DNA of 10,082 bases from a virus (lineage: Duplodnaviria; Heunggongvirae; Uroviricota; Caudoviricetes): the IMG/VR virus record IMGVR_UViG_2917855067_000003, positions 1-10,082 of that record; one strand, given 5' to 3'. Position numbers and translations under genes: made by a program. The stretch's first letter is position 1. Each line of letters starts with the position of its first letter. Of this stretch, positions 2,350-10,082 are shown piece by piece. Under the pieces are notes generated by a model. That model was not told where the DNA came from, did not search any database, and saw only the letters and a list, made by a program, of their open reading frames with translations.

Positions 2350-2670
2350 TCAGTGCAGTACCGGTGCGGTGATATGACGGGCGCAAAGCTCATCCATCAC
2401 GGCCAGCCCGAGAAAGGACAGCGACGGGGCAGCTTTCAGTGGTCCGACTTCCATTAAATCTTCCAGCAGGGCACAGGCAATCTGACGGCCTTTTTCCTCG
2501 CCGTGCTGGCGCAGGTAGAAGCCCTCCAGCTCGGCGGCAATGGCGCTTTCCAGCGCGTCGAGGGTGAGGTGCGGGTAGCGGTGCTGGCGTTCGCACAGGG
2601 TCAGCCATGCACAGGCCACTGCGCGACGATACAGCGCGGCGCGTAATACGGGCGGTAATGGCTTTTTCAT
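2350..2670 (-). CDS. hypothetical protein (106 aa), P4-like leftward operon, immediately upstream of alpha
   Basis: ORF with SD GGGGAGGG upstream of the ATG at 2670. Its start overlaps the stop of the preceding ORF (ATGA), and it ends 14 nt before the alpha start. Function not recognised. Confidence 0.6.
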
Positions 2671-2894
2671 ACGTTACCCTCCCCGGTAAGCCACTGCTGA
2701 TTGCAGCGTTCGACCACGCCGTCGAGCTGGGCGGTCATGAGGTAAATCACGGAGGTGAGCTGTAACTGCTGCGTCGGGTCACGACGAACGGTGGCGCAGT
2801 CCTGCACCTGCATCAGGTTGCCGACGAGCTGGCCGACGTTGCGCATATGCTCCAGACATTCGAGGTCACGGGCGGTAATGGTGGTGTGTCTCAT
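2667..2894 (-). CDS. hypothetical protein (75 aa), P4-like leftward operon
   Basis: ORF with SD GGAGGTG upstream. ATGA overlaps at both ends indicate translational coupling. Function not recognised. Confidence 0.55.
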
Positions 2895-3438: not shown

Positions 3439-3705
3439 TCATGCGTCATAGCCCCGGTTACGTTCGGCAATGCGATCCGCCATCCATGCAGTGATTTCAG
3501 ACTGCGCCCACGCCACATTTTTTCCGCCGAGGGAGATTTGTTTCGGGAAGGCTTCCCGGCTGATGAGGTCGTAAATGGTCGAGCGGGACAGGCCGCACAG
3601 ATGCATCACTTCGGGCAGACGGATAAAGCGCTCGTGAACGGTATCAGAAACCGGCATCAGCGGCGCGGCAGGGGCAGAAGACGGGGAAGAAAAAGCAGTG
3701 TGCAT
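3439..3705 (-). CDS. alpA: AlpA/Vis-family helix-turn-helix regulator (88 aa), matching the size of P4 Vis
   Basis: Translation contains the AlpA-family signature ([47 protein letters not shown]). SD GAGG lies upstream of the ATG at 3705. Confidence 0.85.
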
Positions 3706-3766: not shown

Positions 3767-3795
3767 TATTATGTCTATATTTTTCCTCAGGTCAT
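3767..3795 (-). promoter_or_regulatory. candidate sigma70-type promoter for the leftward alpA/vis operon
   Basis: Minus strand reads ATGACC, a 16-17 nt spacer, then CATAAT/ATAATA, about 55-60 nt upstream of the alpA ATG. The -35 is weak. Confidence 0.25.
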
Positions 3796-3834
3796 GTGAG
3801 ATTTTCGGGGAAACAAACATTGACTTTTCGCTCT

Positions 3835-3871
3835 GGCAAACAAAGGCAAACGCTGGCAAACATATGCAAAT
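3835..3871. promoter_or_regulatory. four direct repeats at exact 10-bp phasing (GGCAAAC x3 and TGCAAAT); candidate regulator binding array
   Basis: GGCAAAC at 3835-3841, 3845-3851 and 3855-3861; TGCAAAT at 3865-3871. They sit in the divergent control region between alpA/vis and sid. Confidence 0.4.
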
Positions 3872-3873
3872 CA

Positions 3874-3889
3874 CTGCATTACAATGCAG
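3874..3889. promoter_or_regulatory. perfect palindrome CTGCATT-AC-AATGCAG; candidate operator
   Basis: 7-bp inverted arms with a 2-bp spacer, directly after the phased repeats and before an AT-rich stretch. Confidence 0.4.
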
Positions 3890-3971
3890 CAATTTCTATT
3901 TCTTTTAGTTATATATTTTTCATTTTTAATCAAAATAAAGTCTAAATGCTATAACCAGAGCAAAACAGGAG

Positions 3972-4105
3972 GGTGAACAGTGGTGAACAGACGGTGAACA
4001 GTCAGACCCTCAACTATTCACCCTTTAACTTACTGTATTAATTATCTTTTTATTTAAGGTGAACAGTGGTGAATAGTTATAAGTAAAAAAATAAACGGTG
4101 AGTAA
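3972..4105. repeat. iteron array GGTGAACA(G), the reverse complement of the P4 type I iteron TGTTCACC; ori/crr-like alpha binding region
   Basis: GGTGAACAG at 3972-3980, 3982-3990, 3993-4001 and 4058-4066; GGTGAATAG at 4068-4076; inverted copy CTATTCACC at 4013-4021; degenerate GGTGAGTAA at 4097-4105. Spacing is 10-11 bp within clusters, and an AT-rich stretch (about 3890-3960) lies alongside. Confidence 0.7.
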
Positions 4106-4152: not shown

Positions 4153-4170
4153 TGTGCCAGCATTCTGACA
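4153..4170 (+). promoter_or_regulatory. Ogr/Delta box (TGT-N12-ACA) of a Psid-like late promoter
   Basis: TGT at 4153-4155 and ACA at 4168-4170 are separated by 12 nt. The dyad centre is about 80 nt upstream of the sid ATG, consistent with a -55 activator site and a short leader. A weak -10-like CAGAAT lies near 4205-4210. Confidence 0.45.
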
Positions 4171-4242: not shown

Positions 4243-4986
4243 ATGAAACCCGAACTCATTATCAAAGCCATGCAGACCGTTATCAGTAAACAGGATGAAG
4301 GCGCGGAACAACGCATTGCCGGTGCGCTGGCCGCACTTAACGAAGCAAAAGATGCACACACGGCCAGCATGGGTAAACTCAGCGACATTGAGGCTTCCAT
4401 TCAGCGTTGTGAGCAGGAACGACAGACCGCCCTCAGTGAAAGTGCACAGGCCGAACAGGACTGGCGCAGCCGCCTTCGAACTCTGCGCGGCAACCTCACT
4501 CCTGAACTGAAAGCTGAACACAGTAAACGTATCGCCAGCCGCGAACTGGCTGATGAGTTCACCGGTCTGATTACCGAGCTGGAGAAAGACAAAAGTCTCG
4601 CCATGCTTGGCGCATGCTCCTCCGGTACGGCTTATATCAGCGCCCATGAAAAAGCATTCACCACTTACGCCAACAGCGAATGGAAGAAGGTGCTGGCCGG
4701 TATCAGCCCCGCACTGTTACGTGCCTTCCTGTTGCGTATACGGTCGCTGGAAATGAGCGGAGAAACCTCATCGCGTGCGACCGCGACACGTGAGCTGGGT
4801 GATGCCCTGAATCTGCAGTCAGCCCTGTATCATTTTGATATGGAGCAGGAGCCGGTCCTGTCCGTAACGGGCATGAATCGCCCGGTCATAACCGGGGTTG
4901 ATATGGCGCTGTTAAGAAGCCCGGCCAGACGGATGAAGCTTGCCGCTGAACTGGCTGCAAAATCCCACGAACAGGCAGAGGGCTGA
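4243..4986 (+). CDS. sid: Sid-like capsid size determination (external scaffold) protein, 247 aa
   Basis: Assigned by position as first gene of the sid-delta-psu operon, by its charged, helix-rich composition, and by a length near P4 Sid (about 244 aa as I recall). Start at 4243 has SD GGAG 9 nt upstream; the ORF-track start at 4177 would lie inside the promoter. Confidence 0.6.
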   Translation: MKPELIIKAMQTVISKQDEGAEQRIAGALAALNEAKDAHTASMGKLSDIEASIQRCEQERQTALSESAQAEQDWRSRLRTLRGNLTPELKAEHSKRIASRELADEFTGLITELEKDKSLAMLGACSSGTAYISAHEKAFTTYANSEWKKVLAGISPALLRAFLLRIRSLEMSGETSSRATATRELGDALNLQSALYHFDMEQEPVLSVTGMNRPVITGVDMALLRSPARRMKLAAELAAKSHEQAEG

Positions 4987-4989
4987 ATT

Positions 4990-5229
4990 ATGTTTCACTG
5001 TCCGTTCTGCAAAAAGACCGCGCACGTCCGTACCAGCCGTTATCTGTCGGAAAACGTCAAACAGCGTTATCACCAGTGTACCAATATCGAATGTTCGGCC
5101 ACTTTCCGCACCATCGAGTCGGTTGACGGTGTGATACGTGCCGCACCGGAGAAACCTGACCCCACCCCGGTGACGCCGCTGCCGCCGCGTAAAGAACAGG
5201 GCTGCTACAGCTCGCCGTTCCGGCATTAA
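4990..5229 (+). CDS. delta: Ogr/Delta-family zinc-finger late-gene transcription activator (single-domain, 79 aa)
   Basis: Translation MFHCPFCKKTAHVRTSRY...YHQCTNIECSATF has the Ogr/Delta Cys4 arrangement (C4, C7, C30, C35). It starts 4 nt after the sid stop, with SD GAGGG upstream. Confidence 0.85.
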   Translation: MFHCPFCKKTAHVRTSRYLSENVKQRYHQCTNIECSATFRTIESVDGVIRAAPEKPDPTPVTPLPPRKEQGCYSSPFRH

Positions 5230-5244
5230 TCAGGAGAGAGACAC

Positions 5245-5811
5245 GTGACCACTATGACAATACAGCAGGCCTTTGAGGCCTGTCAGGCAAACAAAAACAC
5301 CTGGCTGACACGTAAAGCCGAACTGGCTGACCTTGAACTTGAATACCGTGAACAGCTCCTTGCTGGTGACGAACAAATCCCGCGCAAAATGCAGGATTTG
5401 CGCGACAATATCGACGTGAAAAAATGGGAGATTAATCAGGCCGCCGGTCGCTATATCCGCTCACATGAGGAGGTGCAGCACATCAGCATCCGCAACCGGC
5501 TCTATGACTTTATGCAGCAGCACGGCGCGGAGCTGGCCGCCACGCTGGCGCCTGAATTGATGGGGTATAATGAACAGCTTCCCGTAGTAAAACAGAGCGC
5601 CATGCAGCATTCGGTTGATTATCTGCGTGAAGCCCTGTCAGTGTGGCTGGCCGCAGGTGACAAAATTAATTATTCCGCGCAGGACAGCGACATTTTAACG
5701 GCCATCGGATTCAGGCCTGATGCGGCTTCGCGGGATGATAATCGAGAGAAATTCACCCCGGCACAGAACCTGATTTACACCCGCCGACGTGCAGAACTGG
5801 TCGCACGGTAG
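5245..5811 (+). CDS. psu: Psu (polarity suppression protein; Rho inhibitor / capsid decoration), 188 aa
   Basis: Translation (..IQQAFEACQANKNTWL.., ..NQAAGRYIRSHEEVQHISIRNRL.., ..KINYSAQDSDILTAIGFRPDA..) closely resembles P4 Psu as I recall it. A GTG start at 5245 sits 8 nt after SD GGAGAGAG; the alternative ATG at 5254 is too far from the SD. Confidence 0.9.
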   Translation: MTTMTIQQAFEACQANKNTWLTRKAELADLELEYREQLLAGDEQIPRKMQDLRDNIDVKKWEINQAAGRYIRSHEEVQHISIRNRLYDFMQQHGAELAATLAPELMGYNEQLPVVKQSAMQHSVDYLREALSVWLAAGDKINYSAQDSDILTAIGFRPDAASRDDNREKFTPAQNLIYTRRRAELVAR

Positions 5812-6269: not shown

Positions 6270-6950
6270 TTAAAAATGATTAATCAAGATTTGATTTTTT
6301 TTAATTGCTCGTCTACTCCAGTGCTCTGTGATGTTTTGAGTGAAGTCGGGACGAACTATTTTTGCTCTAAAGTCCACTGCTTCAAGAGATTCTACTCTCA
6401 AATATATTCCTTCTGATATTTCATCGCTGAATTTTGATTTTTTTATATAAGAAGATAACTTGTTTAGTTCAAAGAAACCTTCGTCAAGAAAAGGAACGCA
6501 ATGAAGGTTTGCATTTGATATTATTTCGTTTCTTTGAGGAAGTGGTAAAAATATTTTTCTTTTCTTATCGAATACATCAAATGCTAAAAAATAGTCAGGT
6601 AAGCGGGTGTAGTGAATAGAATGTTTCGCATAACACCATTCCCCAAATATAATGTATTGGTCTCGAATGTAGTCAAAAAGGTTGTCGCGGTTGTAATTTA
6701 ACCAGTCAGGAAGCATTTTCCATTGGCCATTAAAAGGTTGATGTAAAAAAGAACCCCTATTTTGAAGGAGTAAGTCTGCATTACCATTAAAGGAAATGCC
6801 TAGATTAGCTCCGTCAATTTTCTCTTCTATTATGGTTTTTTTAGTTGAAAGCAATAATCGTTCTTTATCTGAAATGACCTTGTCATCCCTGACGTTAGGA
6901 TGGTAAAAAATATGTGGAGTGGACGGGAATTTATATAGTTCATCTTCCAT
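6270..6950 (-). CDS. Rnl2-type RNA-ligase-like nucleotidyltransferase (standalone adenylyltransferase domain, about 226 aa)
   Basis: Translation carries ligase motifs in the right order and spacing: motif I EEKIDGAN (KxDG), motif III FGEW, motif IIIa FDVFD, motif IV EGIYLR, motif V RAKIVR. ATG at 6950 has SD AGGAAG 9 nt upstream; the ORF-track GTG at 6977 has no SD. It is AT-rich and overlaps the upstream gene by 11 nt. Confidence 0.7.
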   Translation of the reverse strand: MEDELYKFPSTPHIFYHPNVRDDKVISDKERLLLSTKKTIIEEKIDGANLGISFNGNADLLLQNRGSFLHQPFNGQWKMLPDWLNYNRDNLFDYIRDQYIIFGEWCYAKHSIHYTRLPDYFLAFDVFDKKRKIFLPLPQRNEIISNANLHCVPFLDEGFFELNKLSSYIKKSKFSDEISEGIYLRVESLEAVDFRAKIVRPDFTQNITEHWSRRAIKKNQILINHF

Positions 6951-7479
6951 TTGGAAACTTCCTATTATATGTATCACTTATGAGTTTTTCGTCAGCAAAA
7001 TGAACCGTTATGCCTACATCAGCAAGAGATTCTTTCCAGCCCCACCATTTACTATCAGTTGCTTGAAAAATAGGCGGTTTGTCTACGTGTGCGTATGACG
7101 TGGCTACAAATTTTCTATCCGATAAATCAAAGTTTGTCAGGCCTTCATGTACAGGGAACTCCTCATAGCTAGTTTCGGTTTTTGTAATTCTTACGATGTT
7201 TTTATCAGGGAATTTCCATTGGTTAGTGTAAATCCATTTCATAAATTTATCACCAACGCCAGGGGCTCCACTCATGCTTAAATTTGAGCGATACTCTTCA
7301 ACTATTTCTTGTGCTTCATCAATAACTAACCCACCATTTGCAATTGCCTTTTCTATTATTTCAACACACTCTAAAACACAGCTTAGAATATCATCTGGAA
7401 TGTTTTTTATATCTGTGTGCATATTAGCTGTAACAGCAACATTTGTATCAATTAAAAAAGCAGCAGGTAATTTATTCAT
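6940..7479 (-). CDS. PIN-like domain protein (putative nuclease), 179 aa
   Basis: N-terminal AAFLIDTNVAV resembles the first PIN strand with its conserved Asp; further acidic positions (DEAQE, ATDSKW, ISDTY) fit the PIN pattern. SD GAAGG upstream; start overlaps the ATPase stop (ATGA). The domain call is by eye. Confidence 0.6.
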   Translation of the reverse strand: MNKLPAAFLIDTNVAVTANMHTDIKNIPDDILSCVLECVEIIEKAIANGGLVIDEAQEIVEEYRSNLSMSGAPGVGDKFMKWIYTNQWKFPDKNIVRITKTETSYEEFPVHEGLTNFDLSDRKFVATSYAHVDKPPIFQATDSKWWGWKESLADVGITVHFADEKLISDTYNRKFPNGR

Positions 7480-8861
7480 TTAGATGTACCTTCTTTTTCT
7501 TTTATTCTTCTTTTTAACGCTGATTTTGCTTGCTCTGTAATGTCTGTTAATTCATCACCAAAGAAATTATCTGGCCAGTTGAGGATATTTCCAAATGTAT
7601 CGATTTGCAACGGTGTTAATTTTGGGGTTGAAGATGAAATGTCAGAGAAGTACGCGGAAACTTCCTCGGATTTTATTTTGTCTTCTGCTATTCTCCTTTG
7701 CAGTCTGCGAAGGAAATGCTCTGAGTGAGTTTCTATAATTAGCTGTATGCCTCTTGATTTTCCATTTTCTCGTGAACGGATAACATCGATCATAACATCA
7801 GCAAGCACTGATTGTGCTTTTGGGTGTAAATGAATTTCGGGTTGTTCCATCAAAATTATTGAGCCTGGTTGAGCGTAAAAGCATTGTACTAGAACTGGAA
7901 GAACCTGAGAAACCCCAAACCCAACATCTGGAAGGTCTACCCACTGTTTAGAGCCTTTAGTTTTAACTTTGACTTCATATTCTTGACGATGTTCTGAAAT
8001 TGCTTTTACAGAAAAACTATCAATTAAGTCCATTTGTTTTAATTTTTCAGCGATGATTTCTTCTAATGGTTTATTTTTCTTTTTATAATCAAGGCCGATT
8101 CTTCTTTCTTTTGATGAAAGAATGGCGGAAATTGCATTTTCACCTGCATAACCTACGCTTTCTGGTGAAATTCCAGTCCATGGATATAATCGTTCAGGCT
8201 TATTTCTCATTGGCCCTAAGTAACATACTGAACGGAATAGCTTTTCATGCATTAGATTGATGTCTTGCACAAAATCAGCATTTTGATGGTAAGCTACGAC
8301 TTCCTCAGGGAAACCATAAAATCTAACTACATCTTTTATCGCCCAAACCCTACCCTTCTGTCGAGTTAGAGTGAAATTGTTAGTTTTGATTTTATAATTT
8401 GACTTAGCGTCACGAACAAGTCCTATAGATACATCATCTTTTTCTTTCTGATAGAATGTATATGAGAATCCATTGACATATAAGCTATTATTCTCAGCAT
8501 TAAAAGATATCTCAGATTTAAAATGGCATATTTTCGATAAGGATATAATGCTGTCTAATGATGATTTAGAGTATAATTCATCTATTGACCAAGAGTACTC
8601 AAATGAGATGTTCTTGTTAACGTCTCTCATGTTAACCATGTCTTGAAATGAGCCCAATTGTACTGCTGAGTTTTTACCTCCTGGGTAGAATGGGGTTTTT
8701 CTATCAGATGATTCAACCGTTTGTTTAAGCATCATGAGAAGCTGGCCAATACTAGATTTACCAGAGCTATTTGTTCCAAAGAAAAGAGTGATAGGTGACA
8801 TTTTGATTTCACCTGTATCAGTCCAAACCTTAAAATTTTCTACTTTTAATGTTTTAAACAT
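7476..8861 (-). CDS. ABC-type ATPase (AAA_15/AAA_21, OLD/RecF-like), 461 aa
   Basis: Walker A GTNSSGKSS near the N-terminus, Walker B region ILMEQPEIHLHP and H-loop ETHSEHF near the C-terminus, with a long insertion between, as in defence-associated ABC ATPases. SD AAGGA upstream; ATG is only 3 nt after the int stop. Confidence 0.85.
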   Translation of the reverse strand: MFKTLKVENFKVWTDTGEIKMSPITLFFGTNSSGKSSIGQLLMMLKQTVESSDRKTPFYPGGKNSAVQLGSFQDMVNMRDVNKNISFEYSWSIDELYSKSSLDSIISLSKICHFKSEISFNAENNSLYVNGFSYTFYQKEKDDVSIGLVRDAKSNYKIKTNNFTLTRQKGRVWAIKDVVRFYGFPEEVVAYHQNADFVQDINLMHEKLFRSVCYLGPMRNKPERLYPWTGISPESVGYAGENAISAILSSKERRIGLDYKKKNKPLEEIIAEKLKQMDLIDSFSVKAISEHRQEYEVKVKTKGSKQWVDLPDVGFGVSQVLPVLVQCFYAQPGSIILMEQPEIHLHPKAQSVLADVMIDVIRSRENGKSRGIQLIIETHSEHFLRRLQRRIAEDKIKSEEVSAYFSDISSSTPKLTPLQIDTFGNILNWPDNFFGDELTDITEQAKSALKRRIKEKEGTSK

Positions 8862-8864
8862 TTC

Positions 8865-10082
8865 TTATCCTTTGCTTTTAGATTTTATGATGGAAGCATT
8901 TTGGATTTCATCACCCCACCAAGCTAATAAATCACTACGTTGTTTTAAATAATTTGCACGGTTATATGCTCTTCTGACTTCATTTTTATCTGTATGTGCC
9001 AAAGATGATTCAATTATATCAGCGTTGAAACCAGCTTCATTCATAGTTGTACTCGCGATAGAACGTAATCCATGTGCGACTAATTTACCACCATAACCTA
9101 TTCGCTTCAAAGCGGCATTAGCCGTCTGGCTATTCATAGGTTGCTGTGGATCATTTCTACTTGGAAAAATATATTCTCTATGTGCACTGATTGGCCTCAT
9201 TACTTCCAGAATCTCTAATGCTTGAGTAGAAAGAGGTACGATGTGTTCCCGTTTTGCCTTCATCCGTTCGGCTGGGATCGTCCAGAGTTTGGCATTGAGA
9301 TCGATCTCTGCCCATCGTGTACCTGAAGCCTCAGAAGGTCGCACGAGAGTCAGAAGCTGCCATTCAATAAGACAGCGAGTCGAAACAGACAGATTCGACA
9401 TCACCAAAGAGCGCATTAGCTTCGGCAATTCTTCCGGCCGAAGGGTCGGCATGTTTTGCTTTTTTGGTTTCTCAAATGCCATTCCGACACCTGATGCCGG
9501 GTTTGCATCAATCAGGCCAGTGTTGACGGCGTAGATCATGATTTCGTTAATACGTTGTACCAGGCGGCGAACCGTCTCTAATGCGCCACGTGCTTTGATT
9601 GGCTCCAATGCTTCAACTATCGTTCTGGCCTTAATTTCCTGAACAGGTATTGCGCCTATTGCGGGGAACACGTCCTTATCTAAAGAGCGCCATATATCTT
9701 TCGCGTAGTCTTCAGTGACGCTTTTGCTCTTCATTTTGAACCAGTTGGCGGCCACAGTTGAGAAAATGCTATCCAGCTCAATCTGACGCTGTTCTGATGC
9801 CTGCTCTTGTTGCTGTTGCGGATCCATACCCTGCGCGAGTGTGGTTAAGTGCTGGTCGCGTATCTGACGAGCTGCTGCGAGAGTAAGGGCAGGGTATGAG
9901 CCGAGACTCAAATTAGTTCGGCTGCCACTGACCGGACGTTGATAGCGGAAGCGCCAGAGTTTTTTACCGGTGGTTTTGACGAGCAAGAACAGGCCGTCAC
10001 CATCATGAAGGGTGAAGTCTTTTTCCCGAGGTTTGGCTTTAAGGATTTCGTTGTTAGTGAGGGGGCGTGTGAGGCGCGCCAT
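8865..10082 (-). CDS. int: P4-type tyrosine integrase (405 aa)
   Basis: N-terminus MARLTRPLTNNEILKAKPREKDFTLHDGDGLFLLVKTTGKKLWRFRYQ is the P4-integrase arm-binding domain; C-terminus has HGLRSIAST and RRAYNRANY (catalytic Tyr). The start codon is the last 3 nt of the window. Confidence 0.95.
   Translation of the reverse strand: MARLTRPLTNNEILKAKPREKDFTLHDGDGLFLLVKTTGKKLWRFRYQRPVSGSRTNLSLGSYPALTLAAARQIRDQHLTTLAQGMDPQQQQEQASEQRQIELDSIFSTVAANWFKMKSKSVTEDYAKDIWRSLDKDVFPAIGAIPVQEIKARTIVEALEPIKARGALETVRRLVQRINEIMIYAVNTGLIDANPASGVGMAFEKPKKQNMPTLRPEELPKLMRSLVMSNLSVSTRCLIEWQLLTLVRPSEASGTRWAEIDLNAKLWTIPAERMKAKREHIVPLSTQALEILEVMRPISAHREYIFPSRNDPQQPMNSQTANAALKRIGYGGKLVAHGLRSIASTTMNEAGFNADIIESSLAHTDKNEVRRAYNRANYLKQRSDLLAWWGDEIQNASIIKSKSKG

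Follow-up and report, generated by a model that had tools for sequence, protein, structure and literature searches.

Helically phased repeats upstream of vis in a P4-like satellite resemble the Apl operators of phage 186 and may respond to a 186-type helper

Which protein reads the helically phased direct repeats that lie between the vis gene and the replication origin of a P4-like phage satellite? The question arises from the window, by which we mean the whole stretch of 10,082 nucleotides that was analyzed, and which is a P4-like phage satellite. Satellites of this kind have been reported in more than 30% of Enterobacterales genomes and carry defense systems. For a satellite that senses its helper, the textbook case is P4, activated by P2 Cox, and this activation has been treated as a peculiarity of the P2-P4 pair. 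A preliminary description of the window pointed to same-face repeats next to a palindrome, suggested that a regulator binds them cooperatively, and named as candidates either the AlpA/Vis-like protein encoded next door or a helper-phage regulator.

Layout of the control region

The following features of the window enter the argument.

2667-2894, minus strand: 75-aa ORF (PHROG 10110), no Pfam match
3439-3705, minus strand: vis/alpA, an 88-aa excisionase and regulator (Pfam Phage_AlpA, 3e-20; 70% identity to P4 ORF88/Vis)
3768-3795, minus strand: predicted PLL-like promoter from a consensus scan, -35 ATGACC (3795-3790), -10 CATAAT (3773-3768)
3802-3819, no strand assigned: imperfect candidate Ogr/Delta/B site, TTT-N12-ACA, aligning column for column with P4 TGT-N12-ACA
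3834-3869, plus strand: Apl-type operator array of four boxes, from the sequence and a scan with the 186 Apl matrix
3834-3839, plus strand: box 1, TGGCAA, from the sequence
3844-3849, plus strand: box 2, AGGCAA, from the sequence
3854-3859, plus strand: box 3, TGGCAA, from the sequence
3864-3869, plus strand: box 4, ATGCAA, from the sequence
3874-3889, plus strand: palindrome CTGCATT-AC-AATGCAG, core of an imperfect 28-bp dyad at 3868-3895, from the sequence
3890-3965, no strand assigned: AT-rich spacer between the array and the alpha iterons, from the sequence
3972-4076, no strand assigned: alpha origin iterons GGTGAACAG (reverse complement of the P4 type 1 repeat TGTTCACC), from alignment with the P4 ori
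4153-4170, plus strand: perfect TGT-N12-ACA belonging to a predicted Psid-like late promoter that precedes the sid-like gene; P4 has this motif at the aligned position
4243-4986, plus strand: sid-like gene (PHROG 6165 match)
4990-5229: Delta homolog, a single 79-aa Ogr-like zinc finger
5245-5811: Psu
6940-8861, minus strand: cargo gene pair in the psu-int hotspot, PADLOC HEC-03 (HEC-03B 1e-124, HEC-03A 2e-25)
8865-10082, minus strand: integrase

The repeats are contained in a 537-bp intergenic region that aligns with P4 coordinates 9026-9533 and is flanked by vis/alpA on the minus strand and sid on the plus strand, which bears out its earlier description as a divergent control region. vis/alpA is the first gene after the predicted PLL-like promoter, which itself is aligned with the P4 sequence preceding ORF88/vis, and to the left of vis are found an Ash-family ORF, the 75-aa ORF, DUF5375 and the alpha primase-helicase gene. 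Relative to this predicted promoter the operator array falls at roughly -73 to -108, about 75-110 bp upstream. Between the two lies the candidate Ogr/Delta/B site at 3802-3819, whose function as a late-activator site is uncertain because one of its half-sites is mutated (TTT, not TGT); TGT-N12-ACA is the Ogr/Delta consensus. On the other side of the array, the GGTGAACAG iterons are arranged as three forward, one inverted and two forward copies, with the number and layout of the P4 ori (seven matches versus 1.7 expected). In P4, too, the type 2 and type 1 repeats are separated by a stretch of DNA, which aligns only weakly with the AT-rich spacer of the window.

Some further features distinguish this copy of the element. 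The Delta homolog is a single zinc finger of 79 aa, compared with the 166 aa annotated for P4 Delta. The 235-aa ORF that adjoins the HEC-03 pair (6270-6977) has no PADLOC match. Judged against the intact 777-aa gene of a related element from E. coli HKUOPY1, the alpha gene of the window is split by a 1-bp insertion near 976 into two overlapping minus-strand ORFs (923-2386 and 1-1095). The split alpha gene is a pseudogene or a sequencing error, and the window copy may not replicate; the window element may be defective because of this split.

The repeats themselves were found as first described, with GGCAAAC at 3835-3841, 3845-3851 and 3855-3861 and TGCAAAT at 3865-3871, all at exact 10-bp spacing, followed by the CTGCATT-AC-AATGCAG palindrome at 3874-3889. 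Boxes 1-3 share the extended form (T/A)GGCAAAC. Apart from the GGCAAAC triple starting at 3835, no 7-mer is found in three evenly spaced copies anywhere in the window, and none of 300 Markov shuffles contained any 7-mer triple at 8-12 bp spacing; GGCAAAC as such is present five times in the window, versus 1.97 expected. The direct triple repeat is far beyond chance and the palindrome alone is not, since the window contains seven inverted repeats whose 7-bp arms match perfectly across a spacer of 4 bp or less, versus 3.8 ± 1.9 in shuffles. Two other identities were considered for the phased repeats and rejected. They are not P4 alpha type 1 iterons (TGTTCACC), as the octamer differs and the true iterons, at 3972-4076, are found further right at a distance of 100-240 bp. 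Nor do they form a sigma-54 promoter (GG-N10-GC; TGGCAC-N5-TTGCA), given that TGGCAAACATATGCA represents GG-N9-GC and that adjacent boxes give other spacings.

Correspondence with the Apl operators of phage 186

The RefSeq record of phage 186 annotates 12 Apl sites, seven of them at pR-pL and five at attP, which can be read as TGGCAA-like hexamers at 10-11 bp spacing. [quoted passage not shown] Both the sequence and the spacing of the 186 operators are found in the window, in the form of four same-strand boxes at exactly 10 bp. When a matrix made only from the 12 annotated 186 operators was used to scan for arrays at 10-11 bp spacing, the best three-site and four-site arrays of the whole window, both strands considered, were located at 3834-3869. 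The score of the four-site array is 33.1, versus a null of 14.3 ± 2.6 in 300 shuffles, none of which reaches that value (maximum 24.1). After rescoring with a uniform background, the window array obtains 32.7, the two arrays of 186 itself obtain 32.2 and 32.0, and the best array of P4 obtains 14.1. The agreement extends beyond the 6-bp matrix, as satellite boxes and phage operators have the same base preferences at +6 (A/T), +7 (C/T), -3 (C) and +10 (T) in a comparison of 184 boxes from unique satellite slots with 244 operators that phages with a 186-like Apl carry in 61 unique pR-pL spacers.

A BLAST search of positions 3826-3895 against phage records gave one meaningful match, which corresponds to Yersinia phage GCS667, a member of Eganvirus, the genus of 186. 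This phage, whose Apl is 92% identical to that of 186, carries four TGGCAAAY copies directly after int, where 186 has attP. The site reads TGGCAAACAT TGGCAAATGC TGGCAAACAT TGGCAAAC, and TGGCAAAC is among the best-kept operator forms in phages with a 186-like Apl. In addition, the apl-cI spacer of GCS667 contains at least six phased TTGCCA-type boxes, mostly TTTGCCA.

The window array and the Apl arrays of 186 share the 6-bp core, the flank preferences, the arrangement as direct repeats, the 10-11 bp spacing, the presence of at least three adjacent sites and an equal score. The differences concern the setting: the sites of 186 are placed between convergent promoters or in att, whereas the window array is found in a satellite, upstream of a promoter, with no evident integrase or IHF sites around it and with only three to four good sites. 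Located as it is upstream of vis, in a P4-like satellite, the window array represents the same type of operator and not the phage's own site. A broader likeness exists to RDF arrays, such as lambda Xis at X1-X1.5-X2 and P2 Cox filaments, in which monomers bind cooperatively to head-to-tail repeats and the DNA is bent (PMC7498355, PMC3936717). There the protein acts on the element by which it is encoded, whereas the array in the window would be read by the protein of a helper.

From the observed match to the annotated operators we infer that Apl would bind the array, bearing in mind that the weak sequence discrimination of Apl has been stressed (PMC7498355). The cooperative regulator envisaged for the same-face repeats is therefore best represented by the second of the two early candidates, a helper-phage regulator, as the boxes match the Apl operators of 186; the first candidate, AlpA/Vis, does not withstand the comparison of related satellites that is given further below.

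The palindrome had been presented as a dyad next to the repeats. The longer dyad at 3868-3895 is paired at 11 of 13 arm positions. The TGCA cores of the palindrome, at 3875 and 3885, are in register with the boxes, and the palindrome can be read as two degenerate boxes, CTGCAT at 3874 and ATGCAG at 3884, that keep the 10-bp register of the array. Four of the seven arm pairs of the palindrome come free because TGCA is self-complementary. When the two boxes are added, the Apl matrix gives 31.7 for six sites versus 33.1 for four, and they resemble the degenerate or non-specific positions over which Apl reportedly spreads. The palindrome is present once per element in 22 of 22 close relatives of the window's type. 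It is degraded in Citrobacter and Phytobacter variants, where the phased TGCA cores are kept, absent from one satellite (L171) and replaced by more TGGCAA boxes in another (L145), and both of these satellites retain phased boxes. With its TGCA cores in the 10-bp register of the array, and lost or degraded in close variants that have phased boxes, the dyad is probably not an operator of its own, and the palindrome is better taken as part of the array. The window array may be a composite of three Apl consensus boxes and three boxes with a TGCA core, similar to arrays found in other elements. Two additional assignments of the palindrome were discarded. It is not a 186 CI operator, as CI sites are TTCAC-N5-GTGAA, and it would make a weak terminator or hairpin, with a DNA hairpin of only about -5 kcal/mol and no transcript there to terminate.

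The equivalent slot of P4 and the proposed action of Apl

At the position of P4 that aligns with the window repeats, the GenBank and RefSeq records show three 10-bp "ori type 2 repeats" (X51522 9176-9205), which read CCACTTAAAG, TCATTTAAAG and CCACTTAAAG, followed by CAA. These repeats contain TTAAAGTCA, TTAAAGCCA and TTAAAGCAA and fit the cox-box consensus TTAAA(G/C)NC(A/C), in which box starts are 10-11 bp apart (PMC3936717). It has been established that P2 Cox binds upstream of P4 PLL and that an intact P2 cox gene is needed to derepress P4 lysogens (PMC3936717). The P4 records still label the sites as origin repeats. The window repeats align onto the type 2 repeats, between the vis/PLL promoter on one side and the AT-rich region and alpha iterons on the other. 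The slot of the window contains no cox-box of the form TTAAA(G/C)NC(A/C), and the motif present there is TGGCAA(AC). The early remark that the motif was not familiar from P4 was correct as regards its sequence and missed that the same slot of P4 holds three repeats of 10 bp.

The parallel between both elements is extensive. In P4 as in the window, the slot that separates the vis promoter from the origin iterons is occupied by at least three direct repeats at 10-bp spacing that are closer to the operator consensus than most operators of the helper itself, and in both cases the reader would be the excisionase and lytic repressor of the helper, which is the product of the first gene of the helper early operon. 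The sequences, in contrast, are unrelated, and the cognate protein of the window repeats would be a 186-type Apl, not P2 Cox. The action of a helper excisionase/repressor on phased boxes upstream of PLL is already established for P2 and P4, and the slot itself is a known helper-responsive element in P4.

We propose that the repeats of the window are operators for the Apl protein of a 186-type (Eganvirus) helper and that Apl switches on the left operon of the satellite, a reading that we consider probable. Upon infection by a 186-type helper, or upon its induction, Apl would be made early. Apl monomers would then assemble cooperatively, one per helical turn, on the three consensus boxes and the weaker fourth one, bending the DNA, and they may spread onto the two degenerate boxes of the palindrome. 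Once bound, Apl would turn on leftward transcription through vis, the Ash/cI region and the alpha primase-helicase gene, leading to excision of the satellite and to replication from the adjoining origin in step with the helper. That Apl would activate rather than repress is suggested by analogy with P2 Cox at P4 PLL. If this proposal is true, Apl would possibly have a third role, that of an inter-element activator.

An alternative that we regard as unlikely is that Apl binds the array without activating transcription. The repeats could be a decoy that titrates Apl, especially at high copy number, and thereby disturbs the excision of the helper or its lysis-lysogeny decision, or they could mediate repression of the vis promoter or modulation of the origin. 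We know of no promoter that is activated by Apl. Indeed, Apl has been documented only as a repressor and an excisionase (RefSeq 186; PMC7498355). Other observations that would suit a decoy or a modulator are that the satellite boxes are nearer to the consensus than most of 186's own operators and that the array adjoins the origin. Nevertheless, the equivalent slot of P4 is a place of positive control by Cox (PMC3936717). Moreover, the array of the window lies upstream of the predicted -35 and not over the promoter, a geometry that, as has been argued, leaves PLL accessible (PMC3936717).

Exchangeable cassettes among related satellites

An iteron-pattern scan led to about 120 P4-like loci. Among satellites that share the alpha iterons, at least five classes of phased repeats occupy the same slot, distributed as follows.

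P2-type cox-boxes: 23 slots
CTGGAAGGAGCTGGAA type: 19 slots
GGACTGGAAGGG/CTnnAAGGG type: 10 slots
Arrays scoring at least 24.1 with the Apl matrix: 51 slots
Other, mostly TGGCC/TGACAA/TGGCAC variants: 32 slots

In the first three classes (cox-box, CTGGAAGGAGCTGGAA and GGACTGGAAGGG) the flanks are nearly identical and the cassette alone differs. This wholesale replacement bears on the possibility that the repeats serve the origin as structural or accessory elements, either binding alpha or a host factor or providing intrinsic bending beside the AT-rich region, which we hold to be very unlikely. The location of the repeats would agree with such a function, as they fall inside the P4 rep_origin annotation, beside the AT-rich stretch and the alpha iterons. 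Nonetheless, the type 1 iterons are conserved while the neighboring slot is exchanged as a whole, which is not expected if a conserved replication protein reads it. It also counts against an origin element that the minimal P4 ori1, reportedly defined by Tocchetti et al. in 1999 as a segment of 123 bp, excludes the type 2 repeats. Finally, those repeats fit the cox-box consensus, and P2 Cox has been reported upstream of PLL.

A second correspondence between a cassette and a helper concerns phage WPhi. The GGACTGGAAGGG and CTnnAAGGG boxes are common to a satellite cassette and to the attP and Pe-Pc regions of WPhi. The cassette GGACTGGAAGGGTCTCAAAGGGTTCTGAAGGACCTGGAA, present in several IMG/VR satellites (L143, L128, L136 and others), matches repeats of WPhi (L242) at 640-690 and 2120-2185. 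A BLAST search of the WPhi-like cassette against phage records gave no match, and the match to WPhi came from reading its attP and Pe-Pc regions. The sequence of the GGACTGGAAGGGTCTCAAAGGGTTCTGAAGGACCTGGAA cassette suggests that these satellites are tuned to a WPhi-type Cox. It has been reported that WPhi Cox does not recognize P2 cox-boxes and fails to activate P4 (PMC5009727), and therefore specificity matters. The WPhi-type cassette follows the same principle as the array of the window, from which it differs in its motif and in the genus of the helper (Peduovirus), and it is not the window's own cassette. Together, three pairs of satellite cassette and helper operators can be drawn up: P2 Cox, with experimental binding upstream of PLL, and WPhi Cox and 186 Apl, both putative pairs that come from sequence comparison.

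Other cassettes at the same slot, phased at 10-11 bp, stand without an assigned helper. They are of the CTGGAAGGAGCTGGAA type (L159, L130, L137 and others), the TGGCC(A/T)TTAT type (L127, L253), the TGACAAT/TGGCACA type (L155, L202) and the GTGCAA/ATGCAG type (L287). Two loci from genome_contigs (L285 and L271) have an Apl-type array at the same distance from vis and on the opposite strand, so that the orientation of the boxes is not fixed. L285 is labeled Vagococcus, which looks like contamination or mislabeling of an enterobacterial element.

More tentatively than for the Apl operators themselves, and at somewhat less than an even chance, we suggest that the slot is a modular "helper-identity sensor" that is swapped by recombination, in which the cassettes copy the Cox or Apl operators of a helper and so set which helper wakes the satellite. 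In the library of papers that was searched, none links Apl to P4-like satellites or describes the slot as a variable cassette. If the slot does hold helper-specific operator cassettes, the helper range of a satellite would be readable from its sequence. The same premise would explain the failure of WPhi Cox to activate P4, and, as about 60% of the P4-like satellites sampled combine Apl-like or other TGGCA-type arrays with a 75-aa gene that takes the place of epsilon, it would mean that most P4-like satellites are tuned to helpers of the 186 type, not the P2 type.

The type of cassette covaries with other genes of the satellite. All 79 satellites whose arrays are Apl-like or otherwise of the TGGCA type encode the 75-aa ORF, versus none of 48 with cox-boxes, and P4 epsilon shows the reverse distribution (48 of 48 cox-box satellites versus 1 of 79 with Apl-like/TGGCA-type arrays). 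Epsilon inactivates the P2 repressor. The 75-aa ORF, found in 62% of the satellites sampled here, has no similarity to epsilon or to the Tum protein of 186, and was discarded as a homolog of either. A 75-aa protein absent from P4 has been reported in 61% of P4-like elements (PMC8628076). It is possible that the 75-aa ORF is a candidate for a second helper-interaction module, directed to 186-type helpers. The split between epsilon and the 75-aa ORF fits two lineages of satellites adapted to helpers with different immunity systems, and could also arise from shared ancestry alone. Part of the covariation may reflect shared ancestry because the class of the cassette tracks the lineage (Vis type and 75-aa gene).

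The same distribution gives some attraction to a reading that we judge highly improbable, according to which the sites are bound by another protein of the satellite or the host, such as the 75-aa protein, with the palindrome serving a dimeric regulator such as LexA. The perfect co-occurrence of the 75-aa ORF with TGGCA-type arrays speaks for this protein as a binder. It was nevertheless rejected in that role, as identical 75-aa proteins are found alongside different arrays and layouts and contain no recognizable DNA-binding domain. As for LexA, the CTGT...ACAG of its box (CTGT-N8-ACAG, with an AT-rich center) is nearly invariant. The palindrome has only the CTG-N10-CAG skeleton of that box, and its inner flanks deviate symmetrically (CTGC...GCAG, as judged by comparison with known boxes), with C and G at positions where the LexA box hardly varies. 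It also counts against a dimeric regulator that the palindrome does not exceed chance expectation, that close variants have lost it and that it is unlike the CI operators of 186.

The least probable of the readings considered is autoregulation by the satellite's own Vis/AlpA, which would use the repeats as operators and bind them in the manner of an RDF on phased direct repeats. The vis gene adjoins the array, Vis is a winged-HTH excisionase and regulator of the AlpA family, proteins of this sort occupy direct repeats separated by one turn of the helix, P4 Vis reportedly controls transcription away from att (PMC7498355), and at a coarse level the family of the cassette is tracked by the Vis lineage. 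Against these points, one identical 88-aa Vis is encoded by 37 elements that carry cox-box, CTGGAAGGAGCTGGAA or GGACTGGAAGGG cassettes (18, 14 and 5 loci, respectively), and Vis is an unlikely binder because one identical protein would implausibly read three unrelated motifs. Likewise, the HTH stretch is nearly the same in the Vis proteins of the window and of P4, whose boxes are unrelated, and Vis is without significant similarity to Apl. In a complete element of the window's type (L240; E. coli HKUOPY1) this is the sole Apl-type array, and no other is located near int/ssrA, where an excisionase must bind, which argues against the satellite's own excisionase as the reader. AlpA/Vis, named at the outset as a candidate binder, is a poor fit on these grounds.

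The Vis of the window's type occurs with several array layouts, and has been found in Kluyvera, Citrobacter, Enterobacter, Raoultella, Klebsiella and others; an array identical to that of the window is present in an Enterobacter genome. As regards the co-residence of satellite and helper proposed for Apl, among 5426 complete E. coli genomes the cassette is found in 16 and a 186-type apl in 43, with an overlap of 0, only 0.13 being expected, so that this comparison is uninformative and lends the proposal no support. In IMG/VR, genome 2602042104 harbors a prophage with an Apl identical to that of 186 together with a TGGCA-type P4-like satellite (the L151/L336 pair), an anecdotal case that represents the only co-residence in an isolate genome among the IMG/VR samples drawn.
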